Under the pieces are notes generated by a model. It ran no database searches. It saw only the letters and a list, made by a program, of their open reading frames with translations, and was not told the origin of the DNA. From contig OZ231126.1 in NCBI GenBank assembly GCA_965153355.1, forward strand, positions 5,890,001 to 5,954,000: DNA of 64,000 bases, given 5' to 3'. The stretch comes from Flaccisagitta enflata. Its lineage: Eukaryota. Position 1 is the first letter of the stretch. Each line of letters starts with the position of its first letter. This document shows positions 21,782-51,279 of this stretch, piece by piece. The position numbers were made by a program, and so were the translations under genes.

Positions 21782-22067
21782 AATTGCTTTGGAGATGATC
21801 TAGAAAGCAACATTGGTGACAAGATGAACAATTCGCTTATCAGAACACCGTCGAATGACCTGTCCGTAAAACTCAAGCATCATCATGTGATCATGTGAGA
21901 AGGATAAGAGACACTTCTGTCCTTGGCTTATCTCAGCTCACATGAATGGCAAGAAAATACGAATGCATGATTGTTTTAAAAACCATCGTTTTATTCGTGA
22001 CTAATCAAACAATACAGACCAGTGAGACCACACAAAACAAGATCCAAGATGGCATGTAATGAAAGAT

Positions 22068-22779: not shown

Positions 22780-22834
<55 letters not shown>

Positions 22835-22971
22835 CTCTTTCTTTCTCTCTTTCTTTCTTTCTCTCTTTCTTTCTTTCTCTCTTTCTTTCTTTCTCTCTTT
22901 CTTTCTCACTTTCTCTCTTTCTTTCTCACTTTCTCTCTTTCTTTCTTTCTCTCTTTCTTTCTCACTTTCTC

Positions 22972-23013
<42 letters not shown>

Positions 23014-25404
23014 TTTCTCTTATTTTTGTAATTCTTCATCCTTCCAACTTTCGATCTTTTTTCGACCATTCTTTCTCCCTTTCCACTCTCCTGCTTGCTC
23101 TCGTCCACTCCCAACCTTTCCTTTCTTTCCCCACACGCCTTCTCTTGACAGCGCCACCCACCTGCCGAGTGTCGCTGTGAGTCCCTTGTAGATTCCACTC
23201 GTCCCGATTCCACCTTCTTTGATAATTTGTTTGGCGGCTGCAAAAGCGCTCATTTGATCCTTCAAACTCACTTTGGTCTCAGTCTGTAGACGTACTTTCA
23301 CGGTCTATTCTGCCGAAGAGGAAAGAGAATGGGAAATAGGGAAATTATAAGCGCAGCAAGTGATAATCATGAAACAACCAATCAGTCAATCAATCAAACA
23401 ATCAACGATGAAGCCATTGGGCTATTGGCTGTTGGGGAGGCATGACGACAATAATCAAACAGCCAACAGTCGAGGCTCTTTATTCAAACCAAATCAAAGA
23501 GACAGTTTTATAAATCAAAATTTATACATTTGAATCCCGCTCTAACGGATTTCAAGGGACTAATAATTTTCATCTGTTATAGCCAGAATTGTGTTATTGC
23601 TAATAAAGGAAATAAAAGAAATCAACCTGAAGGGACCTGTAGTAGGCGGAATTCCGTTGGTGGCGGGTCCGTTAGAGCGAGGTTCAACTGTACTAACAAA
23701 ATCATTATAATAACAAAATCATGCCGCAAAGCCGCAACACGCACCTCGAAAGGCGTAATGATCAGCGCTTCTGTCAGTCCGGAGCAGAATCCGGCCATAG
23801 TTACGGCGACGGCGCCGGGTTTCCGTGTCTTATCATGATTAAAGAGCACTTTGTACTGCTCGAAGGTGAAGAATTTAGTGGCCCGTTTCGGAGTGTCTTG
23901 CAGGAGAGCGGGCAGAATGCCTTTGTACAAGGCAGAGGCGCCTTCCGTCTTCACGATTTGTCGGAACGTGGATAATACCGATGACTTGGTTGTCTGGGTG
24001 GTGGGAAAAGGAAAGAGGAGAAAAAGAAAGGATGCGGAGGAAAAGAAAGGATGAGGAGGAAAAGAAAGGATGAGGAGGGAAAGAAAGGATGAGGAGGGAA
24101 AGAAAGGATGAGGAGGGAAAGAAAGGATGAGGAGGGAAAGAAAGGATGAGGAGGGAAAGAAAGGATGAGGAGGGAAAGAAAGGATGAGGAGGGAAAGAAA
24201 GGATGAGGAGGGAAAGAAAGGATGAGGAGGGAAAGAAAGGATGAGGAGGGAAAGAAAGGATGAGGAGGGAAAGAAAGGATGAGGAGGGAAAGAAAGGATG
24301 AGATGGGAAAGAAAGGATGAGGAAGAAAATAAAAGATAAGGAGGAAAGAGAGGAAGAGGAGGAAAGAAAGGAAGAGGAGGAAAGAAAGGATGAGGAGGAA
24401 AAGAAAGGATGAGGAGGAAAAGAAAGGATGAGGAGGAGGGAAACAAAGGATGGGGAGGAAAACAAAGGATGAGGAGGAAAACAAAGGATGAGGAGAAAAA
24501 CATAGGAAGAAGAGGAAAACAAAGGATGAGGAGAAAAACAAAGGAAGAGGAGGAAAAACAGAGGAAGAGGAGGAAAACAAAGGAAGAGGAGAAAAACAAA
24601 GGATGAGGAGGAAAACAAAAGATGAGGAGGAAAACAAAAGGTGAGGAGAAAAACAAAAGATGGGGAGGAAAACAAAAGATGAGGAGGAAAACAAAAGATG
24701 AGGAAGAAAACCAAAGATGAGGAGGAAAACAAAAGATGAGGAGGAAAACAAAAGATGAGGAGGAAAACAAAAGATGAGGAAGAAAACAAAAGATGAGGAA
24801 GAAAACAAAAGATGAGGAGGAAAACAAAACATGAGGAGGAAAACAAAGAATGAGGAGGTAAAGAGTGAGGAGGAGGAGTAAGAAAAGGAATGAGAGTGAT
24901 CGACCTAATAAGAGGCGAGTAAAACCATGAAAACGATAAGTAAAAGAAACGAAAAAATGGAAGGATGAGAAAAAGAGGTCTGAGCCACTCGGATATCGGG
25001 GATTAACGCGTCGGGCTTCGTCTTGAACATGGCGGACAAATACCGTGGAGGAATTGGAGGATGCAGACAAAGCGCGGTCAGACAGTCAAGCACTTGAAGA
25101 ATGGTTTAAAACGGACCTGGACTTGGAAACGTGTTTTGACGAGATCCAAAGGATGCATCAAAGACACTTCGACGAATCCCGCGCTACCTCCAGCGCAAAT
25201 CTGACATAATGCCTGACAGAAACGAGACAAACGCCACGCTTCAAAAGAGGCACATTTTAAACTCATGTCTGACGGAAAGTCAAGCGAACGGACAGACAGA
25301 TGGATAAACGGACAATACCCTTAATAGAGAGTACATGACTAAAAACAGACATCGATAAATTCACTGACCTCCTTAACCAATGATCTTTTCCCATCAGCCA
25401 CCAT
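22068..25404 (-). CDS. SLC25A21: Mitochondrial 2-oxodicarboxylate carrier (ODC), tandem paralogue copy B
   Basis: Exons 25404-25369, 25212-25117, 23993-23745, 23304-23162, 22744-22638, 22459-22068. HPLDLVKTRFQ, GILPALLQDTPKRATKF, GRHGVFGGVYF, IPFDVAKSRIQGP, PKVMRLGPGGA; ~44-aa C-terminal extension relative to copy A. Confidence 0.9.
24020..24870. repeat. 18-bp purine minisatellite (GGATGAGGAGGGAAAGAA-like) in SLC25A21-B intron 2
   Basis: Tandem 18-mers, drifting from GAAAGGATGAGGAGGGAA-type to CAAAAGATGAGGAGGAAA-type units. Confidence 0.95.
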
Positions 25405-25972
25405 GGTCACTTGAGGAAGCTTCAAGACTTCACTGTTACCAATGTCATCATGATTGTTTTTTTTTTATAGTATGAACGTAGCTTGAATTTGAAAAGTTCC
25501 GATTTACTTCATTCTACTGTGCCTAGAAATACAAACAAATTCATTTCCATATATAAAAGCTATAAACATACAAAATGAATTGTAACAGCTTTTTAAAAAA
25601 ATTCTAATTCATTTCTGCTGCTGATTAACACAGCCGAAGTGTTTCCAGAACTAGTCTAAAACATTAACACCATCGGCCATTTTAAATAAACAATAACTTA
25701 AACACTCAACAAACAACAAGAAAATGTAAACAACTAGACTCAATTTGCATAAATTTGAGATGAGATGATTTCTTTTTCAACAAAAATCGATTTGCTGATT
25801 ATCCGGTTTCCGACACGGCAACTGCTTTGGACATTCAAACGATTTAAGCTAAAGATGTGCCACCAATTAATACCTAAATCCATTACACGTGACACCAACT
25901 ATCTGTTGCGTTTGTGCAAATGACACCAATACGTTCTGAACGCTACTGACTGGCGCTGTCAGAGTCGCTATT

Positions 25973-26774
25973 GGCAATTTCTCCTATAAAGTGGGCCGGC
26001 TGAAAAACATGATTTGTTGGCAAAAAAACACTGTGTTCTTCAACCAATCATTCTGTTGAGGATGAAAGCTGTTCTTAGACATCCCTTGAGACAAAACGCT
26101 CAGCATACATCCTTCAAACTCAAGATTTTGATAGGTTAGGTGGCCAAAAGTAGAGCCAAAACAGCCTATTTTCCCTGTCACACTTATGTCACGCTTCATA
26201 TCTACTATAATAAAAACATTTAAAAATTGTCAAGCCTTTCCAATGATAGGTCATTTTTGTATCATTGCTATCCTTAAAGAAGCATCAAAAATTTGATGGT
26301 GACTGGTGGACATTTACTATGAAAATTTTTCATTCATAGTTGATTTGCTAAGAATGAGTAAATATCTCATCCTGATATAGTAATATGCAATACATAAAAA
26401 AACATATTTTTAAGTATGATATAAAATTTCTTTTTTTCCCCTGTCAAGTAAAGACATAACCCAGGTTACATGTCAAATTTCATAACTTTATGTCATTTCT
26501 AGCCGGAGATATTAATTTTTTAAGAAAGTGTCCTATCGAGTTAACACCTTGTCACACTATGTCACACTGTTTTTCACAAAAATTTATATAATTGAACACA
26601 GTTCAAAACTTTAAGTGATTTTTTCATTATGACTTGAAAGAGTATCAAATTCTGAGCCTGCAACCAAAATTTCAAACTGATAGATGCAACTATCATTAAA
26701 TTATATTATTTTTTTCAATGTTAACTCAATCAGGCGCTTGATTCTGGCCGGCCCAGTTTTTAGGAGAAACTGCC
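25973..26774. mobile_element. MITE between the two SLC25A21 copies
   Basis: TIR GGCAATTTCTCCTATAAAGTGGGCCGGC / GCCGGCCCAGTTTTAGGAGAAACTGCC, flanked on both sides by TATT (4-bp TSD). Confidence 0.8.
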
Positions 26775-26962
26775 TATTGCTCAATATGCATAGCGCTACA
26801 CTGACTTACAAATTTGCGATGTAAGTAAATCAGACGGACAGGACGAGAAATTGTCTTTTTTACGTTGAGATTCGCGAATGACTTTTTTTTTTCATTAATT
26901 TGTGCCTAATTCCGGAACAACAACGTTACTAAAATTGACTTTCTTTTTTCGCTCCTAACATC

Positions 26963-31426
<4,464 letters not shown>

Positions 31427-31918: not shown

Positions 31919-34900
31919 TCAAAAGGGCGTGTTCCTCTTTCTGCCCGTGTATTTCGAGTCTCTCTTGGTTTCTTTGCCTTGTTTTAATCTCCTCTCTTTC
32001 TTCTCCATGACCCAAGCTTTGTGAGTTTGATGTTTAGCTCCTTTCAGACCACGAATCTTTTCCTTTCTGTCCGCGAAACTGATTTGTGACTTGGATGACT
32101 GTTCTTGACGTTCTTCCGATCCCAAACCTTACATGTGGGTAATAATGGTCAAGGAGAATTAAGGAGCCATTTTGTTTTAACATTCATTTTGCTGTACAGT
32201 TTACCAATATCAACGATTTGAAGCAACCTCAAAACTCGCAGGAGTGACCATCAATCAATCAATCAATCGTTCAGACTTCAGATGCTAATCTAATTGTGGG
32301 TAGGAAAATTAAGGAGCCATTTTGTTAACTATTGCTTTGCGGTACAAACAATATGGTACTTCACTACGGTACATTACAGCACATGACAGTACAGTTTCTC
32401 ATGCTCGAGAATTCAGTCACATCAAAATTCTCAGGGCTGACCATCATATTTACTAGTAATCAAAAGGTATTAATGGTTAAGGTAAAGGGAACGTTAGAAG
32501 CCCTTTTTCACATCAATTTTACTGAACAGCTCCCCAATACCCTAATATCGACATCAAAACTCGCAGGACTGACCATCAATCAATCAATCAATCGTTCAGA
32601 TGCTAAAGCATTTAAGTTTGATATACCTTTTGGCAATTTCTCGTTGCCTCCGCCCGTCATTAAGCAGAGGAAGATCTTTTTGGCTTTTGAGCTGTTGGGA
32701 TAATCCACGACCAAACCACCGCTGAATCCAGCCTTCATCGCTGTCAAAGTTAACAATTTATAAAGCATGAATTTATTAGCAACTTAAAGCCGGAAGAATC
32801 ATACGCGAATGAGGGCCTACTGATACCACTATTACAAGTGGATTTTTCTTATGCCGATGTATGAAATACAGTATGTTTTTTCTGAACTGATACGAAAGAA
32901 AATCTCATTACTCTGCAATGGAACAAGATATTCAAAATCCGAAAAAAGCGCTAAATAGAGCTTGGTCTGCAGATTTTTCATGTTCTTTCTATGTGGCTTG
33001 TCAAAGAATAGTGTTTCCACCATATCATAACAAGTTAAGTCAGTGTTTTTTAGGAAAAATACCTAATTTATAAGCAAAATTCTCATCAAACCACTACCGC
33101 TTGGTGCTTATGATCCTGATTTTGATTCAAGATGCCGTAGTATATAATTTAAACTGACTTACTTCTCCAATTTGAGTGGGAAATATGTGTTGTTCAATTA
33201 TCATCAACATTTCACTTCAAAAAATGTGGTTTTTTGCATGTTTTTACAAAAAAATGCCTAATTTGTGATCCTGAACTTAAAATTGGTAATTTCTTCACAA
33301 TATAGAGGCAGAATATGCATCTATGATAAGTTTTCCTTTATGTAAGACCATTTCTAGAGTTTTGGCTTGATCTATAGAGAGCCAGCATGAATTCGAAATG
33401 ATATACTTAAGAGATGCTTTTTAAGAATTCATGCCATCTGAGAAATGGAAGTTTTGATTTACATAGAATGGGGGCCTATTTTCTGAAAGTTATGCATTAT
33501 TCAATTCATGACCAAAAATCTGCAGACCAAGCTCTATTTAGCGCTTTTTTCTTGTTTCATTGCAGAGTAATGAGATTTTCTTTCGTATCAGTTCAGAAAA
33601 AACATACTGTAAAAGCTTTGATAATGAGGACAATAGTTTCATACATTCAGTTTAACCCGATTTCCGTTATTCTTGGTTCCATAATAGCTGGTTGCAGCTG
33701 CACGTCTACTACCAGTAATGGCGGCTGTCGCCGTGAGGAAAAAAGTCGTAAGCATTGGTCACTTTTCACCAAGCTTTTGTTTTCAGTCAGTGCAAATCTT
33801 TCTACTTGTTAGATCAAACCAAAAGCACTTGTATGTATTGGTTGGACTGTTAATCAGAGAAATGTAGGTCTGAGCCAAATGAGCTAAATGAGCTAAAATG
33901 CTCAAAATCACTCAACCACACAAACAGCTATGCTCATTACAGGGGTGTATATTCTTGAGTCGCTTTTGTTTTTCCCCCTTGCCTTTGATTTTTTCTTCCC
34001 CGACGCGTCGTCCGTTTTATATCCATTTTTTTCTTTATATAGCAATAACTATGTAGTTAAGGCTTAAATAGTGTTAAATTGTGTTTACTAATTGAGTTTT
34101 ATGATTTGGTACTGTAAAAAGTCCCCAAATTTCTTTTTTTTCCCCTGAATTTTAGCCATCTCCAGACCCTTGATTTTTCCCCACTGAGAAAACTCAAATC
34201 ATACATGAGCCTGGCTCATTGACATGCTTTTTTGTATTTGCATTCATATTTGATCTTATTAAAAATCAGAAAAAAATATTGAGCTAAATGATAAGTGAGC
34301 TAGACCATTAACTCTCATAAATGAGCAACTGACTCACTGACATGAAAGATTTAAAGTGGTGGAGATGCTTAGTAAGAAAATGAAAACCCTGTTTCTCTCG
34401 AATATGTCAAAAAGTCGAAGACTGACTTCGACTTTTTTCCCGATAATTGTGGATAAGCCATCTTACCCTGTTGCGTTATTAATTCCACTTGCGAGTCATT
34501 TTCAGGGTAAAACTGGAAGACTGCTCTGGCGCCTCTGGCCAGCGCCGCGTAGAGAGAAGCGAAGAATGTGGCGAGTCTTTTAGCGGGTTTATGAAAGGCT
34601 TTATCGGCGTTGCAGAGCCACTGCAAAGCGGAAATGGAGATGGCGCCATCAGCGCAGCCGGGCCGAAGTCCCAACCCTTGACCCAAATCGTGCAGAAGAA
34701 GATCGCCGGAAGCCTGGAAACGGAACTAAAGAGACTATTTTTGGGGCTTCACGAAGCTCGAAGTATGTACATGTAATCGAAAGATTTTTCAAAAAATGTA
34801 ATTCAGACTCTTTCTTTGATCATCTTTTTCTCATATCTGTCATCTTTACTGTAAGCAGTATCGACGCACAGGAGGAGATTCCGAAAGCGTGACAGTCCGA

Positions 34901-36034
34901 CTGACCTCTCTTTCGACTGCGACATCCAGCATGGCTTTTGAGATGTCAAATCCGATCCATTGATGGCCGGCCTCTTCAATCGCCTCCCCGCTTAACCCAG
35001 AGCCGCAACCTGCAACATAGTTAAATCCCGAAGACAGAGACAGAACTGTTAATTCTAGCCGGCCTCCTCTTTCGCCTCCCCGTTCAACCCAGATCCGCAA
35101 CTCGAAACATGGTTAAATCCCAAAGACAGAGACAGAGCTGTTAATTGGCTGACCGAGATGACGCAAACTGCGCAAATGCCCTGGCATGCAGCATACTACC
35201 AAGCTTGAAGCTGTAGATTAAAATGGGCTATGTCGGAAAATTCCGGCTCGCTCAGAATAATTTTTCTTCATAATGATCCCATCGAACAAATCACAATTGT
35301 TCTAACCAGTAAAATGATTCTAGAATAAAATTTTGCACTTCCTCATTCGAATTGTTATTACGAGATCCATGGATCTTTTTGTTTTGCCATAATTAAATTT
35401 GGCGCGGAGAATGATTCTTCTCTTCTTTATAAAACGTTTTCTGGCGTGTATGAAACTTGAGACTGCATTATGCAAATAAGGATTTCATCCACCGTGACTA
35501 AAACACGGAGGCGTAAACTAGAAATCTGACCTGAACATACAGAAGCCATTAATAAAATGTTAGTCCGTCCGTCCATTCATCGGTAACGCCTTGCTTTACC
35601 GGCGTTTAAAGACGATTTTAACAGCATTGCTCCCGTCCAAAAGCTTTTAGTATTTCTCATCACCGCCGCTGCCCACCCGCACGTAACTCGAATAGCCATG
35701 TATCCGGCCTTGTTTTCTCCAATAACCGCCTTGGCGCTTGCCTGCCGCGTAGCATTGCCGCTAAAAGCATTGCCACAAAAGGCACAATGGTGTAGACAGA
35801 ATCTGCCCCTTTAGCCTACCACGACCATAAACCTTAACTGTCGCACACACACTGACCCAGATCGAGAATGAGCGCGGGTGTTTCATCGGGCAGCGCCAGC
35901 AGTTCCAAAGCCCTGGTGGACATTTGCTCTTGAATTTCGATCATGCGTGAGTTGGTCGTGTATTTGCGAGCTTCATCTTCGCCGTAGAAAATCTCCGGAG
36001 GCGCCAAATGCTCGGGACGACGACAAGACGCCAT
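31919..36034 (-). CDS. BUD23: 18S rRNA guanine-N7 methyltransferase BUD23/WBSCR22
   Basis: Exons 36034-35857, 35009-34906, 34713-34467, 32740-32627, 32127-31919. [89 protein letters not shown] are diagnostic. Confidence 0.97.
32869..33609. mobile_element. Tc1/mariner-type MITE (TA TSD)
   Basis: ~100-bp TIR starting CAGTATGTTTTTTCTGAACTGATACGAAAGAAAATCTCATTACTCTGCAATG, TA on both flanks. Confidence 0.8.
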
Positions 36035-36728
36035 TTTTGGGGCTAAATGAGTATAGAAGCTGTCACGTCCGATGGCAGTTCTAGGAAACTGATTAATATG
36101 ATCGTTTTCTCTGCGTCATGTAAGCGACGCCGATAGTTTGCATCGACGAGAAACAAGAACGTTCTAGTTTCAGTTTCCACCTTCCTCACCGACTTTGCCC
36201 GCTCAGCCCACTCAAGCGTTTTCCAACATTGACGGTCCTAATCTGAGCTGATGTAATTTTGATAACGGTTCAGCGTGAAATCTAATACAGTTTACTTTTC
36301 TAAACTTCTGCCTAAAATATCACAGGCGCTGCAAAATCTGACAAAAACTGGTAAAAAGCACGCTTTTTATTACTAAAAGATGAAAAGGAACAATAGCAAA
36401 GTTATTTTCGATATTCGCGTATTCGTAATGATAAGAGCGGTAGGAGGGGGGAAGAGGGGGGGGGGCAAGATTCCGAAACCAAAACCTCTTTCTAATCACA
36501 CAGCTGGACCAATTGTCACCACAATTACAGTCGCATGATCACAGATTTGAAACTGAATTATTGTCCCATGTCCACTGCAGTAATTTACTCGATGTAAGAA
36601 CCTCGGTTTGACAACCACACTCGCAACGCCCATAGGGGCTTGGAGATACTTTGTGCCTTCGATAAGATAGTCACATTTTTTCCTCTTTCGACTTACTATT
36701 GTAATAGAGTCAAGTCGTCATTGGTTGG

Positions 36729-36821: not shown

Positions 36822-39357
36822 TCAATTCCTCCTATTATGATCCGTACAGACGCCTCCCATTTCCAACAGCAGTCTATCTGGATTGTCCTGCCACCCCGCC
36901 CTCGCCGCTCCTCTCCCAGCTCCTCCCCCTCCTCCTCCTCCCCCTCCTCCTCCTCCAAATGCCGCCTCTCTTCTGACTGTTTGTCCTTTGACTGCTTCTT
37001 TTTGTTCCCAAGTCTTTTGGCTCTTTTGTTGGTCCAATGCGCGTGAACTGGAACATCCCCAAACTTCGATCGCGCGAATGTTTTGTTCCATTCCTGTTGA
37101 GGGAAGGTGCAAAGTTCCCACTAGTTAATATACATCAAATTTATTCACATGTCAAGAGAAAGGAGGAAATGGACGATGATTGTAAAATCTCAAAGAGAGT
37201 AGAGACGAAACGAAGGGAAGATTGTCACCATTAGTCAGAACATCGATGTTCAAGTACATATAAGTAAAGACTTAAATGAGGTTTAATGAAAATACACAAA
37301 TCCAGCATGCTTGCCTTAGACAAACTGAGGCTCAGGAACCCGTGCAATAATTTTAGTTGCGGACACGCAAATCTATTAGAGGCTTTGTCCGTCAAGTTGA
37401 AAACGCCAAGAACGCTGCAGTTGTTGTTGTGGGTGTGCGTATGTGTGGGAGGGGGACGGGGTTGGGCGAGGCTGGGGGTTGGATGCCCCTGCCCACTGGT
37501 CCACATTGATATTGTGACCGTGCGTCGCTATTTAACACACAGTGATTGATGCTCAATACTAACTGTCCTTCCGTCAATCCGTTAAACTCCATTTGATGAC
37601 TTCTCACCGTTCGCGGCGGTGCAGAGATCAAATCCCGAGTCGATTTTGAGGATGGGCGTCTTAGGATCGTGACCCAATAAAATTCCCTTCGGTAACGATC
37701 GTCCCCATTCATTTAAATACAGGATTTCGCGACCAGAATCGCGACAACGAAATCTGGAACGATACGATGAGAATCACAAGATCATGAGTCTTCTTCATTT
37801 ATTTATTGAACGATACATACATTGAACTTTACATTTTCACTCTCTAATTTTGCATAGGCTCAAAGTCTCATAGGTCAAACAAGACATTTTGTGAAAAGTT
37901 CTTTTTAACCCCTGCTTAATAGTTGTTACGTACTCATTAATAACTAAATTGTAACTCGCCTCGGCACGGCTTCGAGAATGACGGCGTCCATGCCACCAAA
38001 GCGCGAAGTGCTTTCCTTCCATTCCGCGTCTGATGCCACCACGTAAAGATCACCCGCCTCCAGTTCTAATAACATCACAGTCTGGCCTTTATACGAGAAC
38101 ACGTGATGCTGACAGGGAAAAGGAAAAGGCCAAAAATATTCTAAAAGGGGGACTTGCCTCTACTTCCACTGACATAATATGGCATACAAAGCGGAACGAG
38201 ATTACCCTGAAGTAAGATATGGGAAGATAAAGAGTTAGATCATGGCAGCAACTTATGATAAGCAAAGTTTACTAGGCGCTCAGCCGCTCACTCACCTGGA
38301 ATCGGTTCATGCTTAGGCCATGACTGTTGCTGTTGTACAACAGACTCCACTGCGTCGATTGAGAGAGAGAATTTATTTTATCAGACATGGGATCAGAAAT
38401 GTCGTCGTCTGTTTTATCTGGAAACAATTGTTGGAAGCTCATAAATCTTCAACATAAATTCATTTCACATTTCACATACAGTAACAGTTAGCAATTTCAA
38501 GGCATGCTTGCAATCCCGCAGAAAATGCACACCTAGTTATCCAAGTTATCCTGCTAGGATCAAAAGAAGATCGAATTTACTGACACGAGAAGAGCCAGAT
38601 AGTAACGACTAACGAGTTTGGTCAATATGCAAAATAAGCATACCTTGTAATCCTGTTAAGAAGAAAGATCTGGCTAACAATCCCGATAGCAACCATTTGA
38701 GCATGGGACAAAGGATTTGGTCACTGTGCATCGATCCCATCGACTTCAAAGACGCGCTCGAACTTCGCGACACCAGTTTTGGACGGGTACGAGACATGTT
38801 TGGAGAGAGATGAGGTGGGTGAGCGGCATGAGGAGGATGAGGAGTTGAGGAGGAGGAAGGAGGAGAAGAGCTGAAAGCGAGTTCCGGTGGAAGAGAAGCT
38901 AGTTGAGGAGAGAGATCGTTGTGGAGGGCGGGATCGGTGTGCACTGGACCTGTTAGCGGACATGAAGATAGAAAGAATCTTTTCAGATACAGACAAGATA
39001 GAATATGACGCCCATAACGCTGATTTACGTGACTGTCAAATGAACCTATTGCATCTTTTTCTGGTGAATTACGTAAGTCGTACCTTTATCATCGACCAGA
39101 GCGCGAATAAACCAAGCGTGAGTGGCACCAAATAATCGTGGACAGTTTTCGTAAATCTGGGCAAAAGATTGACTATTCCAAATACACGATTCTCATCTCA
39201 ATTGTACAGAGAAAGACTTGAAATGTCGAGGACCAAGGGTCCGTTCGTTGGTCCGTAATGATTGAGTCATTGAGTCAATAAAAGAGAAAATGCGCATTCA
39301 AGATGCTGTGTGTGAGTGTGTGCGTGTGTGTGCGCGTGCGTGTGTGTGCGCGTGTGT

Positions 39358-39439
<82 letters not shown>

Positions 39440-39495
39440 ATTCGTTGGTCCGTAATGATTGAGTCAATAAAAGTGAAATTGCGCATTCAAGATGC

Positions 39496-39592
<97 letters not shown>

Positions 39593-39750
39593 GTGTGCGT
39601 GTGTGTGCGGGTGTGTGTGAATGTGAGAGTGTGTGAATGTGTGTGAATGTGTGTGAATGTGTGTGAGGGTGTGTGTGAATGTGTGTGAGGGTGTGTGAGA
39701 ATGTCTGTGAGGGTGTGTGTGTGTGTAAGAGTGTGTGTGTGTGTGTGTGT

Positions 39751-39846
<96 letters not shown>

Positions 39847-42800
39847 CTTTGAGGGGGGGGGACATTTTATATGCCCCTTCCAACACACCCAGGACAATAT
39901 CGTAATCCCGCGTTACTTCATATTTTCATTTGTCATCAATCTCGCCACATTCGCGTCCTCTCACCCACGACAACAGGTCGTCTTTATGAATGTGCTTCTT
40001 GTTTTTCATGATGGAAATGACGAGAGAGTTGAGTAGATATTGATCTTCCATCGTCAACACGGCAGATCCGTGATGAAGGCTTTGGTGCAAATAGAAGCAT
40101 GTGATCAACATATGGCGTAGATGAACCTCGTCCATTTCCGAACACAAATGCCATCCATTGTCATGAGTGTTATAGCCTGTAGAGAATGCAATCATGCAAA
40201 CGTTATTGGTCATCCCCAATGAATTTGGTTAATTTTAGAGAAATTTAAAAAGAAATGCCGCGCAAGGCTAGCGTCCATTTTCACATACACATGGAAAGAC
40301 ATGACAGTGAATGTTTTTCAGATTTTTTCATGGAGACCTAGTGGTGTTGCGCGTATCAACTTATCATCTTGGGTTCAAAATGCCCATCTCCACTCATTTC
40401 AGTCTGAGGGATATCGTTCCACATGTCATACACAATTGAATCCGTTGTTAACGTACATAACAACGACATAGCATTTAATGACCTGATTGCTGAGGTCATA
40501 AATAGTAAAGTCATGGTAAATGCTATGAACGCGCACGATAACGTCAATTTACCAATGAACATTTCGGCGCAGTAGTTGGTCTCTGACATGGTATCGACGA
40601 TCTCTTGACAGACATTTAAGAAATCGTCCGCTTTCAAATGACCCTGGTTGAGAAATAAGTTGTTCTTGCATGTAAGACAAAAATAGTCCCAATGGAAAGC
40701 CGGAGGGGCCATCAAAGATCAATGTGCTTGTGTGTGTAGTTTGTGCTCAAACTGTACATCCTCAGATACACCTAAACAGATAAACGATAGTGTTCACATG
40801 AGGTCAGCGTGCATGCCATCATTAAATCGCACATGTAATACCGATTGATGTTTGCTTTTGGCGACGAGAAAATTGAGAAAATAATCTCCGATAGATGGCG
40901 TTGGCGCTTGATGGCATCGATCGGCCGGCGGACGGCCAGCGCCGCTTTTAATTGGACTAGACGGGATATGAGTCACGTGATTGTCATCTCCGTCCAATCG
41001 AAACACGCGACGCAACAAGGACACGTCCAACTCACCACCTGATTGGCGAAAAGCGTAAAAGACGGATCAACATAAAAAAGACGGATCAACATAAAAAATG
41101 GGTGGGAAAAAAAAGGAAACAGAGGTTTGGCTGTTTTTTCCTACTCTATACCATCACAACTTATAATTTCAGAGACCTTGGCCAACCTTGGACACCGGGA
41201 AAGTATCAAGATGATGGTCTTAAAAACACATGAAAATCGAGGAAAATCGACGAAAATCGCGCCATATATTATGCAAGATTTTGTCAACAAAATAGGTGTA
41301 CATCCCTATTTTTATCCTTTGAACGGTTTGAATGGGTATTCATTTGGAAAATATGCGTAAATAAGTCAAGTGGGCCATAAGATAAGCTTTGGGGGTCATT
41401 TTTAGTCGCGTGCACGCGACTCTATAACCTACTCTGTCCGTCTGTAAGTTTGTCAGTCTGTTGATCCGTCACGCTTAACTTTTTTTGCTATTTTACGTTG
41501 TTTTAAGTCATTGTTCATGTTGTCTTTTAGTCTTGACAACTGCACATGACTTAGAGGTGTTGGCCTTGTTTACCATACAAACCTATCAGTACATGCAGCC
41601 TCACCCATTTTAGATTTTCTAAAATCTTTCTTCAGTTGCAAACTAGTGATTGGTTAACCTTCTTCAAAAACCGACCTAATGATGATAAATAAAAAATTGC
41701 AAATGTTACAAAAATGAATTGAAATTATCAAAAAACTGTACATGAAATTCAATGAAATTCATCATATTTCTTCATCAGTGTCATCTTCGATGGCTACTGC
41801 TGCATCAATAAGGTTTGTGCAATCTGAACCTGTGCAATGAGTGCAGGCCATTGTGCACTTCAGATTATTCTTTCTGCAGGACCATCGCAAATTACTACAA
41901 CCACTTTTGCAGCTACATCTCACCACTTTCAAAAGATTTTCAGGGGCTACTGGAAGGTCAGTGGCAACTGGCGCAAAACCTTCTTCATCAATCCTCCATC
42001 CCCAACTTTCAGGTTGCATCTCACTGTCCCACTCTTTCCAAACACAAATTTGATGATAAACTTGATAGCTGTGATACTTCATTGCTGCAGAAGTAGGAGG
42101 CAGTTAAATTAGTTAAATTGAAAAATAGAAGTACTGACAGACAAACAGATAGATACTAGTAATGGCAGCTGTCGCTGTGAGGAACAAAAGTCATAAGCGT
42201 TGTTCTTTTTTCATCAAGCTTTTGTCTTCAGTCACTGCAACTCTTTTTTTTTTTTGTTAAATCAAATTAAGAGCAATTGTATGTATTGGTTGCCCTGAAA
42301 ATCAGAGAAAAATAGGACTGAGCCAAATGAGCTAGATGAGCTAAAATAGTCAAAATCACTCAACCAGACAACCAGCTATGCTCATTGACATGCTTTCTTG
42401 TATTGGCATGCTTAAATCAAACCATTTATTTATCTGTTTGAAAATCAGAAAAAAGAGCAAGCTAAATGAGCTAAATGAGCTAGAATACTTAAAAACACCC
42501 TCACAGATGAGCATCTCTGCTCACTGACATGCTTTCTTGTATTTGTTTTCTTAAACATCTATCAATATTTTTGCTTATTTATCGGGAAAAAAGTCGAAGT
42601 CAGTCTTCGACTTTTTGACATATTCGAGAGAAACAGGGTTTTCATTTCCTTATGGGGAAGTTGAGGGAAACAATCGACCGAATGAGCCCTCCAATGAAAT
42701 TGATAGGGTAAGTAAGTTGGATAATTCTCTTCCATTTGGCACCAAGCAGGATGCTCTACAACAAATATTTTTCTTTTTCTTTTATTTTTTAAAGATTTAT

Positions 42801-44443
42801 TTATAAAAAATTCAAATGAATTTTTTTAGATTTTTTTAATTTTGTGTAGGATCAATAAAGGAGTGTATTTATGTTTATTTGAGCTTGCAAATACAAAAAA
42901 ACATGTTTATGAGCACAGCTGCTCATCTGTGAGGGCGTTTTTGAGTATTCTAGCTCATTTAGCTCACTTAGCTCAGTCTATTCTTTCTGATTTCAAATAT
43001 GATAAATGAATAAATATTTTCATACTTGATTTAGCAAGCAAAGAAAAAAACATGTCAGTGAGCAGAGCTGCTCATCTGTGAGGGCGTTTTTAAGTATTCT
43101 AGCTCATTTAGCTCATTAACCTTGCTCTTTTTCTCTGATTTTAAAAAGGATAAATATATCGATGTTTTCATTTAAGCATGTCAGTGTGTAAAGCTGATTG
43201 TCTGGTTGAATGATTTTGAGTATTTTAGCTCATCTAGCTCAGTTAGCTCAGTCCTATTTTTCTCTGATTTTCAGTGGAATCAATACATGAAATTGTTTTT
43301 GATTTGATCTAACAAATAAAAAAAAATTCAGTGACTGAAGATAAAAGCATGGTGAAAAATGACCAATGCTTACGACTATTTTCCGCACGGCGACAGCCGC
43401 CATTACTGGTAGTATTTGAAATCAGAAAAAAAATTGAACTAAGTGAGCTAAATGAGCTAAAATGCTCAAAATCACCCTCACACATGAGCTGCAATGCTCA
43501 TAAGCATTTTTTCTTGTATTAACATGCTCAACAAAACTTAGAATGACTCCTTTATTGATCCTACATAAAATCATAAAAAATGGAAAAAAATTCTGTTTGA
43601 ATTTTTCGTAAATAAATCTTTAAAAATTCATAACGCAAAAAATACTTTTCTCAGAGACTTCTGCTTGGCGCCAAATGAAAAAGAATTTTCAAATTTACTT
43701 ACCCTATCAATTTTATCCAAGGGTGCAATCAGCCAGATGAGACCCTCAACTTCCTAATAAGAAATTGAAAACCATGTTTCTCTCGAATATGTCAAAAAGT
43801 CGACTTTTTTCCCAATGAGGTTCAACCAGTAGCCCACCTGACCTGATTCTTGTAAATATTTTTTCAATATTAACAATTCTCTAGAAAAGAATGATGATAT
43901 GCACCTGTTTTCCTTCATTCTTTTTGATGTTTGTAAAATATCTTTTAGAAGGTTTTGGCAAATTTTGGCGATTTTCGCCTATTTTCAAGGTGCGATTACC
44001 TGTTTTTCAAACCATGATCTTGATACTTTCCCGGTGTCCAAGGTTGGCCAAGGTCTCTGAAATTATTAGTTGTTATAGTATAGATTAAGGAAAAACAATC
44101 AGACCTCTGTTTCCTATTTTTTCCGGGTGCTATTAGAAAAAATTCTATGTTGATCCGTCTAGCATGTGAAGGTGAATAGTGAAATATGTGCGCTTTCGTA
44201 GATTGCCTATACAAGGCTACAACTATGCGCGGTAAGGCAGGAGTGGGTGAGACGAACAAACTGGTAATTCACAATTCAGAAGTTTCTAATCAAGATTGAC
44301 TCACCCCCTTGCTTGTTGTCATTTGATGCCATGCACAATTTGTTGCAGAGAAATTGGAGTGATGGATGAAATGACTTCAAGGGTGATTTTCCCCCAGTAG
44401 GCACTCGGCCAGACGCTGTTGGTTGACTTTCAGCGTTGCCCAT
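36822..44443 (-). CDS. N-myristoylated TLDc-domain protein (Rtc5/MEAK7-like), ~568 aa, 10 exons
   Basis: Phase-consistent exons 44443-44305, 41038-40842, 40643-40553, 40176-39965, 39156-39084, 38949-38644, 38417-38296, 38108-37960 (GC donor), 37753-37608, 37093-36822. N-terminus MGNAES fits MGxxxS; TLDc motifs [28 protein letters not shown] and [10 protein letters not shown]-terminal [14 protein letters not shown]. Confidence 0.85.
39307..39845. repeat. (TG)n microsatellites with a duplicated ~70-bp spacer
   Basis: Directly visible; TTCGTTGGTCCGTAATGATTGAGTCA occurs at ~39244 and ~39441. Confidence 0.95.
41762..42110 (-). pseudogene. C-terminal fragment of an Academ-type transposase (LPT..AMKYH..VYHQ..W..PESWGW..APENLL plus CXC/Cys-rich finger)
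   Basis: ORF 41762-42082 has CSCKSGC...[24 protein letters not shown], lies inside the TIR element, and lacks upstream coding sequence. Confidence 0.75.
42588..43812. mobile_element. Nested long-TIR element with GAGCTAAAT subrepeats; related sequence at 33705-34445 in a BUD23 intron
   Basis: TCGACTTTTTGACATATTCGAGAGAAACA at ~42608 is inverted at ~43775-43804; similarity continues inward for several hundred bp; the same terminus occurs at 34385-34440. Confidence 0.6.
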
Positions 44444-44513
44444 GTTTGACGTGTACTGTCAATTTTGGTGACCTTTTTTTTTCGCTCACCAAGTCACTTA
44501 AAAAATTGTAGAA

Positions 44514-45091
44514 TTATTGAGGAGGAGTTTGTCTTTCTTTGTCTTTGTAAGTCCCCAAAACGGTTTCGTCCATTTCTGGGAGTTGCATTCCTTTTTCTTT
44601 CAACGCTTTCTTCACGCACTCTTGATAAACTGGAGCAGAAAATGACAAGGACGGGAAAGAATGGAAGTAAGAGAGAAGATGAATTGTTTTGGAAGAAATC
44701 CAATGGCAAAAGAAGCTCGATCATTTGATCATTCTTTTTGTTGATATCCACGCATCTCTATCAGTAGATATAACCAACTATCGGTTTATACGTCCCTCCG
44801 TAACGCTCACTAGAAGTAGAACAGCAAGCCTTAGAAACATCGTTGTAAAGCCAATGGAAAGATCAAAGTATGCATAGAGCAACGATAGAGCTAATGGATG
44901 TAACTGTAAGCCTGTAGTTCAGGATCAGATGCAGCATAGACTAAGAATGCACTTGTAGTTTACTGACCTTTAAAAACGGGCGCGCAGGTGTCCTCCTTTT
45001 CGCCTTTGAGAAACTTTTCTGAGAACCATTGATTGAAACAAGCCTCGTAAGATTTCTTGAGTTCATTGCACTCAGACCCGATGCTCTGCAT
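44514..45091 (-). CDS. TRIAP1: TRIAP1/Mdm35 twin-CX9C mitochondrial intermembrane-space lipid-transfer chaperone (absent from the ORF track)
   Basis: Exons 45091-44968 and 44629-44514 splice in phase 1 to MQSIGSECNELKKSYEACFNQWFSEKFLKGEKEDTCAPVFKVYQECVKKALKEKGMQLPEMDETVLGTYKDKERQTPPQ*, with the family signature CFNxWFxEKFLKG and two CX9C motifs. Confidence 0.95.
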
Positions 45092-45589
45092 GACGTCTTT
45101 CAAAATGGGTCACAGTTTCAACGGTGAGAATAGTAAAAGGAATGAAAACCTGAATAACAATCGATTTCTCACATTAAAATCCAAATCCAACGTGATGATT
45201 GGCGAGAAAAAATCTCGAAATGTTGGGCTCTTACTGTTGGCGAAATATCGATTGAGAAGGGACGATTCACAATCAAAGAAAGTTACATGGACAAAAGTTT
45301 GTAATCATGTTTAGATTCACAATTCGTACACATCGCCAAAGTAATGGAATATCAAAAATAACCTAATCACTGAATTAGAAGCAAGAGCGCAGAAAATGTC
45401 CTTGCTAGTTATTCCTAGTTATTCCTAGTTATTGCAAGACTAGACCTACAGATATCAATCAAAACAGTGAACCCTGTCCAATGAGGAGTTATGAGAGACT
45501 AGACCTACAGTTAACTATCAAACATTGAAAAGTTTGGGTGCCGCCGCTTTGAATCTTTCTCCGCGCTTTTTCAGTAGCCTTTACTGCAT

Positions 45590-48500
45590 TTACTCTGCCG
45601 ATTCCAAAAACCCGAGGCACTTGGCCGAGGCGCTTTCCGCGTCCGTCCAAAAATGGACGTCTCCGCAATCGCATCGGCTGCCGAAGATGAGGGGATAGAA
45701 GGCAACCGCGTCTGTACCGTCAGTAAAGGGATTAAGTCGTTCGTAGAAGCGGATATTGCCATTGTCGTCAGTCATGAAGCGGGAAATGACGTCCATGGTT
45801 TCGAGTCGATGCAACTTCTCTCGCCAATCATCAACCAATCGCTGGACCACTGTCGCGTCCTTCAGCTGAATGAATTTCCGTCTCGCGCGCATCGTTTCTT
45901 CCACAAAATTGATATCAGTTTTGTCCAGTCCCTTCCACTCAATTCCAATATCTGGGGGGATGGTGATTAGGTCCTTTTCATACAGGTCGATGGCGATAAG
46001 ACAGGTGCGAAGTTGACTCCACGCCGAGATTGCGGGCAATTCCGAAGGCGAGATACCGTAGACACCCTGACACGGCCATTCCCCTGAAATTCTCCAGATG
46101 AGGGGTTGCTTCAACGATCGTCGCCAAGCTGCCTGGTTCTAGCTGGACGGCAACATCGAGGGCCAGAGTTTTCAAATTTTGAAGTCGATCTCCACAGAGC
46201 CAGACAGATCGAGCCAAATGGTGTCCGTGTTCAATCCAAACGTCGCACCACAGAAAGAACTCCTTCAGTTGGAAACTTGCGGGAACGTTGTTCGGGAGCG
46301 GGAAACAGGAGACTAGAAACTCTTCGTCTTCGCAGAGAACGAACACCAAAGCAAAACGCCTGACGCAAGTCCAGCAGGACAGCGGGATCTCTTCAAACCA
46401 CTTTGATCCGATAGAAACTAAGATGAATGTGAAAACTAAGAATAAAGAAATCGGTAATGTTAGGGAATTCAATCCTGTCACTTTTTTTTCTCCCGCAAGG
46501 CGCAAGACAAATGTTCAATTCAAACTTTTTCGAGCCAAAACATATAAAACCAAACCCACACCCGGCCCTAACACTACTCCTAATCCCAACCCTAACCCTA
46601 AAACCCACCCATCTCTAACCCTTACCCCACCCCTAACCCTAAAACATTACCCGCTTAAGAACACTTAAAAACAAAAGACACGGATTGAAATCACTAACGT
46701 GACCAAGAAATCTATCGCCTAGGCCCTAGGGGGAGGTCATTTTTGCCGCATAATTTAAATACCATATCCCAATCTGGTACAATTGTACTATCATCTGTGA
46801 TCTTTCGTTTTTAAGACTTTTTAAGCGGATTTTGGGCAGCGGCCCCGAAGGGGACGAAGTCCTGTAGAACACAGGGGGAATCTGTCCGTCCGTCCGTCCG
46901 TACATCCGTCCGTCCGTCCCCCCCCCCCCCGCCCCACCCTCAGGGCTTTGTCTCCTTTGGGGCCCAAATCTCAACTGTATGGCCCAAATCCAAGCAAAAT
47001 GGCCCAAATCCAGCCAAAATGGGCCAAATCCAGGCAAAATGGTACAAGACCAGGTAAAATGGGCCAAATATGGCTATAAAACCTGAATTCTGGCCTGAGT
47101 TTTATCATCTTGGCCCCTTAAACTTAGATCCTGGCTCCCAAAACCGACATCCAAGCATTAGACACCCAGATCCTGACCTTTGGGACCCAGATTCTGACCT
47201 CCAAGACCTAGGTGCTGGCCTTAAAGACCTAACTCCTAGCCTCAGAGGCCCATATCCTGGCCTCAGAAACTGAAATCCTTGCCTTTGAGACCAAGAAATT
47301 GGTCTCTGAGACCCAGATTCTGGCTTCAGAGACCCAGATCCTGACCTGCTCCTCCCTCCACTTAACCTACAAAATATACAATAAGAGCAAGGGTACCATT
47401 GTCCATAAAGTGCCTTTTGTCATTTCTCCATGGTATTCAATGAAAATTTGAATGACAGGGCATCCTGGACAGAAGGAAGGCAGACAGGACAGACAGACAG
47501 ACGGATGGATGGACGGACGGACGGACGGACAGATTCCCCCTGTGTTCTACAGGACTTTGTCCCCTTCGGGGCCGCTGCCCTGCTCCCTCTCAACCTTTAC
47601 TACTTCCTACTCAAGCAGGGCACGGGTACCGCTGACCACTTACTGCCTTTGGGCTGCTATTTAAATTACGGTTAGGGGTGGGGTTAGGGTTGGAGATAGG
47701 GTTAGGGTTGGAGATAGGGTTAGGGTTGGAGATAGTTTTAGGATTAATGACAGGGTTAGCTTTAGGGCTAAGGGTTGGGTGGGTTCTATGTATTACGGCC
47801 CGAAACTATTCGAATTAAATTCGCTCTGGATTAGGATTCGGAAAGTAAAACAAAATCGTGCAGAGAATCATTCATTTTTTCCCCAAATCTGAACCATGTC
47901 ATAGTGACAACCAATCCCCGATCCATTCCCCGATATTTTAACGCTGAATGATTACAATCTTAATGAGGTTGTCTTACCATCGTGGAATGTGAAAGTGAGG
48001 GAATCGAGCGGCGGTAAAAGCGCAGTCGGCGTAACTTCAATTGCTTCAGCGACGTTGGATGATCCATCTCCCCGAGGAAAAAAGAGCACGAGGGACTGGA
48101 GCTTCACGAACTGCCCCAGCATAGTTCTCAGACGGATCCACTCCGCGGGGGTTTTCAACGCGAAATAAGCCGAGGATATGTTTGCCCACAATTGGAAGTT
48201 GGTCAGGGCAGAGAAAGAGGTGAGATCGAGGACAGGAATGTCGAGGGCCTCTACCAAAATGTTGCGCGGCATGAGTTGGATGTCCACGTTGGTCGGAAGA
48301 AGGGCAAGTAGCTTCAAGATTCTACGATAACCACGAGAGCGTTCGACAAGCTGAGACAGTAGTAGACAAAGAATCAGTCAACATTTGCAATTAATTCGCA
48401 TTTACAAGAAAATCCAGAATGTATTATAATCCTATTTCCTGTATCAATACCGAAGACTGTCAGAACGGGCAGATACGCAACCACTTCGATGTCGCATCAA

Positions 48501-50721
48501 AGTGGGCAGGGTGATCAAAGTGGAAATCTAGCATTTGAGCATGTAACATGACAACTGGCGAACTGACAGAGAAACTTAAGAGATCACCTGCACCCGACTT
48601 AAAACTTTCAATCAGCACAAAGATACTAACCAATCCATAAACTTGGAGTCCCAGGGTCACCGAGCATAAACTCGGCGAACAATCATGTTGCGTCTCCATC
48701 AAAGGCGCAACTTGTTCGGGGCTATTTCCGTCAAGTTGACCATGTGAATCTTCCCCGAGCCACACCTTCGCCAGGCACAAAGTTTTCAAAGTTTTGCAGT
48801 GGTATAGCAGGAACTCCACATAGTCGTAATAGACGTAATCGTGGATTGAGAGATGCACTAGTTGCTTAATAAGCTGAGGCGTGGAAGCAAGATTGAGGAC
48901 TTTGAATTCTCGGCTTGACTGTTCATGGTCATGACGATGAGAGATATCTGTTCCGTCATAATCAATCACCCCCGCAAGCTCAAGAGACTGAATCTGTAGC
49001 GTGTCCAGAGCTGCTGCAAACATTGGATCAATAGGATGACTCCGAACCCCTGGAACGGTCCGGTCCCCCTGTTCTGCTACTCGGACTTCGCCATAGGTGT
49101 TCAACCCAGGCCACAGCGTCAGAGACTTGAGATCCTTGAAGACGTGAAAAGGATTTTCGCAGACGTCGGTGGTCAGGCGCTCAAAAGGCGTCGACAGGGT
49201 GAGGTGCTTTATCTTTGGATGTCTTGTGGCGATTTTCTTTAACAGGCTGCTGCTCGAGTAAAAGCCCATTGGTAGTCTTAGGTCAGTGAGCTGACTCAGC
49301 TCAGCACAGCCGAACCACAGCGCCCTGTCATTAATAGAGCGAATAAGCAGAAAATGGTTCATACTAGCCATTCAGGTTGAAGATACAGAATTCACTGGAG
49401 CGCATGTCCAGGGACTGAGCAAAATTATGCCTTAAGATACAACTATTGGGTGCTTCACATAACAAAAGTTGTGAATTTCTCTTCGTCCCGCTTACCTCAT
49501 GTGGAATGGTTAATTTTAAGACCCTTACCATTTTTCTTTTCTTCAAAATCATTCATCTTCCGTTTTTTTTAGCGAGCTTTTTGTCAGACTTAATTTGCAT
49601 AATGCAGTGGGATAAATTGTTGTGCTGATGTTTTTTTAAATGATTTTTACTAATTCTTTTTGTCATGAAATTATTTATCAGCTTACTAAGTTAGCTCTTA
49701 CATAGTTTTTGCTATAATATTGAAGTATCCTTACAAATATTATGATTTTCCAATACAAATAACTGCCCTATCAATAACAAAACTATGAAAGGAATTTTTG
49801 ATTCCCATTGATTTCTATGGGTAACTTCAAGGTCAAAACAAAAACGGAAGATGATGGAATTTTTAAAAAAGGAAAATGCTTATCTTCATAATTTTGGTTT
49901 CTATTTTGTAAGTGGGACGAAGGGTTACTACAAATTTTTACTATGCGAAGCATCCAAATGCGACTACTTTACTGCCAATATAGAATTAACTGCAAAACCA
50001 CATGTGTAGTTAGTAGTTTGCCTTTAAGGGGGGCAGGACTTATTAGCGGGTGAGCTCCGGCGGTGCTCTACTAAACACTGGTATTCACTTAAGGCCATGA
50101 AGCTTTCAACATCTAGACTCATTTGCGCCAAGACAGACTTAACTCCTAATACCTGAAAGCGGCGGTGTTTTCCCTTCCCAACCACATCTCAAACATATCG
50201 AGTTTCCTTAAATTGGAGCAACGATGTAGGATGACACGGAGTCGCGCCAACGGAAGCTTAGTTATGCGGTACTCGACCGAAGAATCTGGAGCATCGTCCG
50301 GGAAGCGAAAACTTTTGCTTTGCTCTTTGAGGACGGAGGGAACGCGGGCTTTGAATACGACTTGTTCCGCGTGCGGCAGCGGAAGGAAATCGGCGGCGTG
50401 CGGCGGCGCGGCGTCGTAGCAAACGGCGTTGCGGCCCAAACACACATCGCGCCAGTTGACGGACGTCTGCGTCAACTCGGTCCGCCAGGACTGGCAAACT
50501 CCGGCGCAACGAAGACGATCTTTCGTTGACAGATAGGCGAATAATTTGGCCAAAATGGGAGGCGGCAAAAAGGCGAAAGACTGCGCAGGTAAATCTGGGT
50601 TACGTCTTACCGGATCATCTTGCGCCGGAGGAACAAGTGGAGACGAGTCATCTTGCGTCAGAGGATCAGGTCGAGATGGATCATCAGCGGGTCGTTTTGA
50701 ATTTATTGAGCCATCTTCCAT
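45590..50721 (-). CDS. F-box protein with degenerate leucine-rich repeats; apparent +1 frameshift in last exon
   Basis: Exons 50721-50153, 49363-48631, 48350-47978, 46417-45590. F-box motif FAFLPPPILAKLFAYLSTKDRLRCAGVCQSWREL-like in exon 1, followed by LRR-like segments (CSNLRKLDM, HPKIKHLTL, CKTLKTLCL, LQNLKTLAL, TPHLENF). The last exon changes frame near 46060-46085. Confidence 0.75.
49446..49958. mobile_element. Degenerate TIR MITE in F-box gene intron 1; family fragments also near 5420-5620, 8250 and 11930
   Basis: TTGGGTGCTTCACATAAC..TTCGTCCCGCTTAC is inverted at ~49908-49958; shared core AAAAACGGAAGATG. Confidence 0.6.
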
Positions 50722-51279
50722 GATTGATTGGTTGAGAAAAAGAGTTCGATTTTTGAATTAAAGAAAAGATTGGTTTGAACTGATTCTGAAATTTTAAAAA
50801 AGAACGATCATAACAACTGAAGATGATAATTCTACGGTCTGGACCGCTTTTTGAAACAACAAGCCATCACATCAAGTTCTGCAATTGTGTTAACCGTGAC
50901 AATAATATCATAGAATGCTAACAAGGAAGTTATGTATCCAAGTCCACCAAGAGCGTTTAACTATTATGGGTAGAGTTATTACCGCGCGTGTTCCAGCGTC
51001 TTCTAACACTCATCCTAAATCTTGGGCATCTTAAATATGTACGGAAAATACGTAAGGTTACGTATCAAAGTCCAGACCCAACCCACCCTAGAATATCACC
51101 ACGGATCTTCAAAACTGTAACATCCGGACCATTCGAATGAAAGCAGAATGTTTGGTTTACCGAATCGATATTCATTGATGCTCGGAAGTAAATCGTCTGC
51201 AAATCATCGGCTTAGGGCCTTTAATGAAAATCTCGCTTCGAGGTTTCGCGGATGAAAGGAAAAAAAGAGGAAACGAGGT

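Follow-up and report, generated by a model that had tools for sequence, protein, structure and literature searches.

A window of 64,000 nucleotides (nt) from Flaccisagitta enflata (contig OZ231126.1, positions 5,890,001 to 5,954,000 of the forward strand) carries on its minus strand a TRIAP1/Mdm35 gene followed by a MEAK7/Rtc5-like gene with a TLDc domain, here called the TLDc gene. The TRIAP1 stop codon (TAA, 44516-44514) and the TLDc start codon (ATG, 44443-44441) are separated by a gap of 70 nt (44513-44444), the spacer. Both genes are real and are probably transcribed together, the spacer being covered by RNA from both sides. As far as the RNA goes, the most economical reading is a single transcription unit giving an intron-free RNA that carries both genes (dicistronic, possibly longer); it is preferred here tentatively, at a strength somewhat short of probable.

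Two anchored genes and the spacer between them

The features of the locus are given in window coordinates; X1, X4 and X5 denote RNA runs described in the next section, and P0008 and P0010 are environmental relatives of the TLDc protein.

44968..45091, minus: first exon of TRIAP1/Mdm35, coding portion (start codon at 45091; splice donor G/GTCAGT after 44968; PF05254)
44630..44967, minus: TRIAP1 intron, 338 nt, GT..AG (joint 44629/44968 in RNA contig X1 record 4)
44514..44629, minus: TRIAP1 exon 2, with the stop codon (sequence, PF05254, RNA joint)
44513..44518, minus: AATAAT overlapping the stop codon (hexamer search)
44444..44513, minus: spacer, TRIAP1 stop to TLDc start (sequence; RNA contigs of X5, X4 and X1)
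44497..44505, minus: T6 run and AAG, resembling a splice acceptor, 53 nt upstream of the ATG (AG at 44498-44497)
44465..44492, minus: hairpin 1, 7-bp stem TTGGTGA/TCACCAA and 14-nt loop with an A9 run (fold and repeat search)
44446..44462, minus: hairpin 2, 5-bp stem, TTGAC-AGTACAC-GTCAA, with the AG at -12 in its loop (fold)
44305..44443, minus: TLDc exon 1, MGNAESQ... (donor G/GTGAGT after 44305, phase 1; P0008 and P0010 align from residue 1 at 44443)
40842..41038, minus: TLDc exon 2 (phase-1 acceptor 41040-41039 completes the exon 1 codon; P0008 at 61.5% identity by tblastn)
36825..40643, minus: TLDc exons 3-10 (colinear tblastn of P0008 and P0010; approximate limits 40643-40551, 40177-39962, 39153-39073 and 38950-38651 for exons 3-6, and 38421-38296, 38111-37959, 37755-37606 and 37100-36825 for exons 7-10)

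TRIAP1 exon 1 scored 55.9 bits on PF05254 (UPF0203; cut-off 27), with exon 2 adding 16.2 bits. Among solved structures human TRIAP1 came closest (E 2.8e-13) and yeast Mdm35 next. The twin Cx9C motif, in its usual definition, is present in the frame of 79 codons: C-NELKKSYEA-C lies in exon 1, and the splice joint falls within C-APVFKVYQE-C. In minus-strand sense, exon 2 ends ...CCT CCT CAA TAA. A match to the U6atac small nuclear RNA (RF00619) at 44500-44606 on the minus strand, across TRIAP1 exon 2 and the T6 run, was rejected: its 25.3 bits fall short of the gathering score (33), its alignment deletes the GGAGAG box (6 model positions), and the region is TRIAP1 coding sequence, so that the match was judged a composition artefact.

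The TLDc gene comprises 10 exons, from 44443 down to 36825. A HMMER search of its TLD exon against 1.84 billion cluster representatives returned four proteins, two of them informative: P0008 (421 amino acids, starting MGNAESQ) and P0010 (487 amino acids, starting MGNTES), which map colinearly on the window by tblastn over 8 and 10 exons, respectively. The C-terminal TLDc domain was found by way of these colinear relatives, which match the TLD Pfam family at 56.2 bits (P0010) and 33 bits (P0008); exon 7 of the window alone reaches 19.7 bits, under the cut-off of 24.5. For P0010 the closest solved structure is yeast Rtc5, over the conserved IEVWGCG tail, although the similarity is weak (E 0.006). 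TLDc exons 2-4 had no Pfam match, whether to the EF-hand-like N-terminal domain of MEAK7/Rtc5-type proteins or to any other family. The splice joint 40642/40841 (cut +1) is present in RNA contigs of X1 and X5. The last exon (36825-37100) encodes a run of about 12 glycines that is missing in P0010; a (GAAAG)n repeat lies just downstream of it, and an intron holds a 538-bp (TG)n array at 39307-39844.

A candidate N-myristoylation motif at Gly2 heads the protein, which starts MGNAES here; the corresponding starts are MGNAESQ for P0008 and MGNTES for P0010. In the MEAK7/Rtc5 family a free N terminus with Gly2 is described as needed for myristoylation and localisation (PMC11066047, PMC5942914). Because its relatives begin MGN(A/T)ES and the family needs a free Gly2, 44443 is the true TLDc start. 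With MEAK7 and yeast Rtc5, which are N-myristoylated regulators of the V-ATPase, the gene product shares the Gly2 start, a long N-terminal region and the C-terminal TLDc domain; it differs in that the likeness at the level of structure is weak (the E value of 0.006 given above) and in that myristoylation and V-ATPase binding are here predicted. Short relatives of TLDc exon 1 were not found, and a search for longer ones gave only P0001, an environmental allele in which the spacer and TLDc exon 1 are both present and the protein is 98% identical; scans of JGI metagenomes with TLDc exon 1 and TRIAP1 exon 1 found no relative.

With a well-anchored stop codon in TRIAP1 and an equally well-anchored TLDc start, the distance of 70 nt between them is the solid part of the observation. 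The start codon cannot be moved, because the protein needs its free Gly2, and these 70 nt must therefore hold a 3′ untranslated region (3′UTR), any processing signals and a 5′ untranslated region (5′UTR). An earlier, sequence-only reading of this DNA had drawn attention to the same cramped arrangement, and its description of the sequence proves exact. Its premise of little room is borne out, and its spacer string of 70 nt matches letter for letter. As it had stated, AATAAA is lacking, and from 44600 down to 44300 ATTAAA is missing as well; apart from the A9 run (44482-44474), the sole hexamer resembling a polyadenylation signal is the AATAAT at the stop codon. The U-rich stretch is the T6 run at 44505-44500, and the stem TTGGTGA/TCACCAA (arms at 44492-44486 and 44471-44465) does enclose an A-rich loop containing the A9 run. 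The AG said to serve as an acceptor is also there (44457-44456, 12 nt from the TLDc ATG), though with poor acceptor quality: the 18 nt before it are 33% pyrimidine, at the 21st percentile of all AGs, compared with 83%, 72% and 61% for the three acceptors of the locus. The minus strand of the window holds 3570 AGs, or about one per 18 nt, so that chance alone should place one as close as 12 nt to an ATG; the AG here is probably not a splice acceptor. The TTTTTTAAG site, whose AG lies at 44498-44497, has 67% pyrimidine upstream and stands at the 88th percentile of the 3570.

The predicted fold of the spacer is only mildly more stable than chance, at -14.1 kcal/mol against -9.24 +/- 2.4 in 200 shuffles (z -2.02; 7/200 shuffles fold as well). 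The hairpin 1 string is single in the window (one match at up to 3 mismatches). A role for the spacer hairpins is no more than putative, and the gene pair and hairpin by themselves are not evidence for a new mechanism. P0001 points to an A-to-G change at one position of each stem, by which G-U pairs would be kept; these changes were not counted as evidence of conservation, because they come from back-translation of a predicted protein whose first 'M' may be a TTG start.

RNA on both sides of the spacer

RNA was matched on 40250-45750 from four of eight available runs, belonging to four studies, of which X1, X4 and X5 are marine metatranscriptome contigs and X8 consists of raw poly(A) reads (5 matching reads of about 12.2 million, all partial). 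A place was counted as bridged only with at least 31 letters on both sides, and contigs cannot show starts, ends or single transcripts. Five contigs bear on the gene junction:

44500-44629 joined to 44968-45124: X1 record 4
44458-44628: X5 record 23
44474-44624: X4 record 15
44326-44478: X1 record 3
44307-44453, plus 4 loose letters: X4 record 14

The stop codon is bridged by X5 record 23, with 114 and 56 letters on its two sides, and the same contig reads through the AAG site at 44497 with 131 and 39 letters. The TLDc ATG is bridged by X1 record 3 (118 and 35 letters), which also has 22 genomic letters upstream of the AG at -12, under the 31 needed for that place to count as bridged. Intron-free RNA from the TRIAP1 side thus reaches at least 56 nt into the spacer, intron-free RNA from the TLDc side extends at least 35 nt upstream of the ATG, and the two overlap at 44458-44478. 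By depth arithmetic, these contigs explain the whole depth of bins 44298-44481 and 44482-44665 in each run. Depth is zero in the TRIAP1 intron bin (44666-44849) and in the TLDc intron 1 bin (44114-44297) in 3/3 metatranscriptome runs. With no depth in either intron and TRIAP1 found spliced, the spacer coverage does not come from DNA, and an unspliced precursor, of which the intron bins show none, is an unlikely source.

X4 records 14 and 15 are each 151 letters long, which is the read length, and each has a depth of 2. Lying on opposite strands with 20 nt between them, they appear to be mates of one fragment of about 318 nt (44307-44624), which would span both frames. The contig ends at 44500, 44478 and 44458 were not used as evidence of processing sites, contigs being unable to show ends.

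Upstream of the pair, an F-box gene has its stop at about 45590, 498 nt before the TRIAP1 ATG, and most of this interval (45125-45590) is covered in X1 at a depth of about 3, like the coding exons; this is either a long 3′UTR or read-through into TRIAP1. One X8 poly(A) read appears, by depth arithmetic (0.34 x 184 and 0.07 x 184 nt), to match about 45021-45096 and to leave the locus at an AG/A 5 nt before the TRIAP1 ATG. X1 record 4, unlike that read, continues to 45124, 28 nt past this AG.

One messenger RNA or two

The locus could yield one two-gene mRNA, the tentatively preferred outcome, or two separate mRNAs, from overlapping genes, which is doubtful, or from a trans-spliced operon, which is less likely again. 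On the first of these readings, a polymerase starting upstream of TRIAP1 would run across the spacer into TLDc exon 1, and removal of the introns would leave an RNA in which the last part of the TRIAP1 frame is followed by the complete spacer and then by the beginning of the TLDc frame; from this joint RNA the TLDc protein would be made, likeliest by termination and re-initiation after the short TRIAP1 frame. Leaky scanning is the less likely route, since a ribosome on the spliced RNA would meet four further AUGs on its way from the TRIAP1 start to that of TLDc. In favour of a joint RNA are the covering of the spacer from both sides, the empty intron bins, the lack of AATAAA and ATTAAA and the weak AG at -12, to which can be added the apparent X4 fragment across both frames, the X1 coverage of the 498 nt upstream and the placing of all 8 recognisable genes of the window on the minus strand. 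From this we infer that the TRIAP1-side and TLDc-side pieces come from one molecule. The sequence-only reading had offered two options, namely coupled 3′-end formation with trans-splicing, or a stable bicistronic mRNA with TRIAP1 as the upstream frame; the latter gains from the RNA-covered spacer and the empty introns, while the element proposed for the former loses from the weakness of the AG. A fuller version of the dicistronic reading is a long shot: a stable mRNA whose upstream frame is a complete, conserved protein of the mitochondrial intermembrane space (TRIAP1), with the TLDc product, as an N-myristoylated V-ATPase regulator, translated by re-initiation 70 nt further on while the two hairpins hold or position the post-termination ribosome.

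Several observations weigh against a joint RNA. No listed contig holds at least 31 letters of both frames, and none bridges the whole spacer. Depth in X5 is absent on TLDc exon 1 past 44458, yet exons 2-3 stand at 7.5; such holes prove nothing, but X5 lends a joint RNA no support. RNA depths are only 2-4 and, of the five matching reads in the single raw-read run (X8), none lies in the spacer. The four intervening AUGs make leaky scanning unlikely, and in standard eukaryotic initiation a second frame placed after a first of 79 codons is translated inefficiently.

That the pair is an assembly artefact or a dead locus is very improbable. Nothing was found in favour of an artefactual juxtaposition or a pseudogene, which is contradicted by the RNA contigs from independent samples that reproduce the exon 2-spacer and spacer-TLDc exon 1 junctions, by the P0001 allele, and by two frames that are open, spliced and conserved. 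More serious, though doubtful, is the possibility of two independent genes that overlap, with a promoter of its own for TLDc, a TLDc start in TRIAP1 exon 2 or the spacer (about 44629 to 44478) and TRIAP1 polyadenylated at or after about 44458; the mature mRNAs would then overlap by at least 20 nt and share no molecule. This needs only a TRIAP1 3′UTR of at least 56 nt and a TLDc 5′UTR of at least 35 nt, both ordinary lengths, and no unusual translation, the problem of the four AUGs being avoided; the end of X5 record 23 at 44458, with a CA dinucleotide coming next, would fit, as would the missing X5 depth on TLDc exon 1. Positive support is absent, however, and there is no canonical polyadenylation signal before 44458. 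The fragment 44307-44624, if X4 records 14 and 15 are mates, is not predicted by overlapping genes. The ratio of observed to expected CpG gives no promoter-like signal upstream of the TLDc ATG, but this measure is uninformative here, with a window mean of 0.86 and no consistent peak at other gene starts. The sequence-only reading had set against its own proposal a TLDc transcription start inside the TRIAP1 intron or exon 2: the intronic version, including a start at the TATAAA at about 44790-44785, lacks support, depth in the intron bin being zero in 3/3 runs, whereas a start in exon 2 or the spacer is possible.

The other route to two mRNAs, a spliced-leader operon, is unlikely. Here the precursor would be cut and polyadenylated within the spacer and a leader added at the AG at -12 (44456/44455) or at the TTTTTTAAG site (44497/44496), the latter 15 nt past the stop-overlapping AATAAT in a tight, tunicate-like coupling. 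The stop-to-start distance is within the range used to call operons, 8/8 recognisable genes share one strand, pyrimidine content upstream of the AAG at 44498-44497 reaches the 88th percentile, and the X1 contigs that end at 44500 and 44478 flank this site; the X8 read that seems to depart before the TRIAP1 ATG, about half of which matches nothing on 40250-45750, hints at a leader on the 5′ end of TRIAP1 itself, and the Atlas gave a weak lead to arthropods (score 0.88, for the Myb-like gene), among which calanoid copepods have a leader. On the other side, no shared leader occurs among the 18 loose ends listed (62 in all), no poly(A) end was seen in the contigs, which cannot show ends, or in the 5 reads of X8, no SL RNA family was found in the window by Rfam, and the dinoflagellate leader motif is absent from the window. 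RNA runs across both candidate sites: X1 record 3 retains its 22 genomic letters upstream of the AG at -12, itself only at the 21st percentile for pyrimidine, and X5 record 23 reads straight through 44497. X1 record 4 likewise continues past the AG before the TRIAP1 ATG. Nor would a single cut leave intron-free RNAs that overlap, as those from the TRIAP1 and TLDc sides do at 44458-44478.

Tight co-oriented pairs, operons and dicistronic mRNAs are known kinds of arrangement, and the pair is a well-anchored candidate among them, not a new mechanism. Its co-oriented genes and very short gap, 70 nt from stop to ATG, are those by which operons are recognised. With the SL2 operons of C. elegans it shares co-oriented genes and, between the cistrons, a stem-loop and a U-rich stretch that recalls the nematode Ur element. 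The gap of about 100 nt in C. elegans runs from poly(A) site to acceptor (PMC7986045), whereas here the 70 nt run from stop to ATG and are too short for this. The same source gives operon gaps of at most 60 bp in Oikopleura and a median of 1 bp in Ciona, and chaetognath operons are spaced at less than 250 bp (PMC12460157). With these tunicate and chaetognath operons the pair has in common unrelated housekeeping genes on the same strand, a gap within 0-250 bp and no room for a promoter. It differs from them in that RNA from both sides overlaps within the gap and in that neither a spliced leader nor an SL RNA gene nor a poly(A) end was observed.

Dicistronic and polycistronic nuclear mRNAs offer a further likeness, in Drosophila and also in green algae, where a small upstream frame (here of 79 codons) is likewise followed closely by a larger one. 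In green-algal pairs the median distance between frames is 212-260 nt, with a single promoter and poly(A) tail (PMC7896298), and leaky scanning is reported (PMC11291117, PMC7896298), which the intervening AUGs make unlikely here. For calanoid copepods a 46-nt leader and short 5′UTRs are described, with AAUAAA in only about half of cDNAs (PMC4664967). Nothing on a TRIAP1-TLDc pair was found in the literature, where the supplementary operon tables (chaetognath, SLOPPR) might list it. If the genes are co-transcribed, the locus would be a clean natural case of a second full-length eukaryotic protein expressed 70 nt behind a first, and with a dicistronic mRNA the amounts made of a mitochondrial lipid-transfer factor and of a lysosomal regulator would be linked. 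A leader, if found, would mark operons in a marine lineage, and simple overlap of the two genes would make this an ordinary locus.

Neighbouring genes and repeats

The 8 recognisable genes of the window, all on the minus strand, are an F-box/LRR gene, TRIAP1, the TLDc gene, BUD23, two mitochondrial carriers, a Myb-like gene and AAA_5 (minus-strand gene spans include 18861-19889, 20342-21799, 22068-30608, 32580-36115, 36825-44443, 44514-45091 and 45590-50757), and several neighbours are separated by 70-500 nt. None of five plus-strand frames tested (0/5) had a Pfam match. Arrays with every gene in the same direction are unusual in animal genomes, and this one is relevant to whether transcription is polycistronic. 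The Myb-like frame is 485 amino acids long and has 6 environmental relatives; the Atlas gave nothing useful for the LRR gene. For the BUD23 exon, as for the TRIAP1 exon, the closest among solved structures is a human chain, as would suit an animal without proving one. No Rfam family at gathering score and no tRNA was found in the window.

A transposon of about 3 kb occupies most of TLDc intron 1:

41105..44124, strand not assigned: transposon with 124-nt terminal inverted repeats (repeat search)

Its terminal repeats are 90% complementary, nested inverted repeats lie inside it, and a Cys-rich frame within it (41762-42103) has no Pfam match. The insertion looks recent, because the P0001 allele reads straight across from about 44165 to about 41075. 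The transposon explains the 3.3-kb length of TLDc intron 1 and is not part of the mechanism. RNA depth, when summed, reaches about 1640 in X1, 314 in X5 and 21 in X4 on a 45-nt segment inside it (41398-41442), whose upstream flanks vary and which is followed in the contigs by (GGTC)n-like repeats. The segment is a widespread repeat tied to a GTCC/GGTC microsatellite and not specific to the locus. Further along the minus strand, the two mitochondrial carriers are tandem Mito_carr paralogues (22068-25085 and 26963-30608, 64 and 65 bits) whose introns are full of (GAAAG)n-type repeats.

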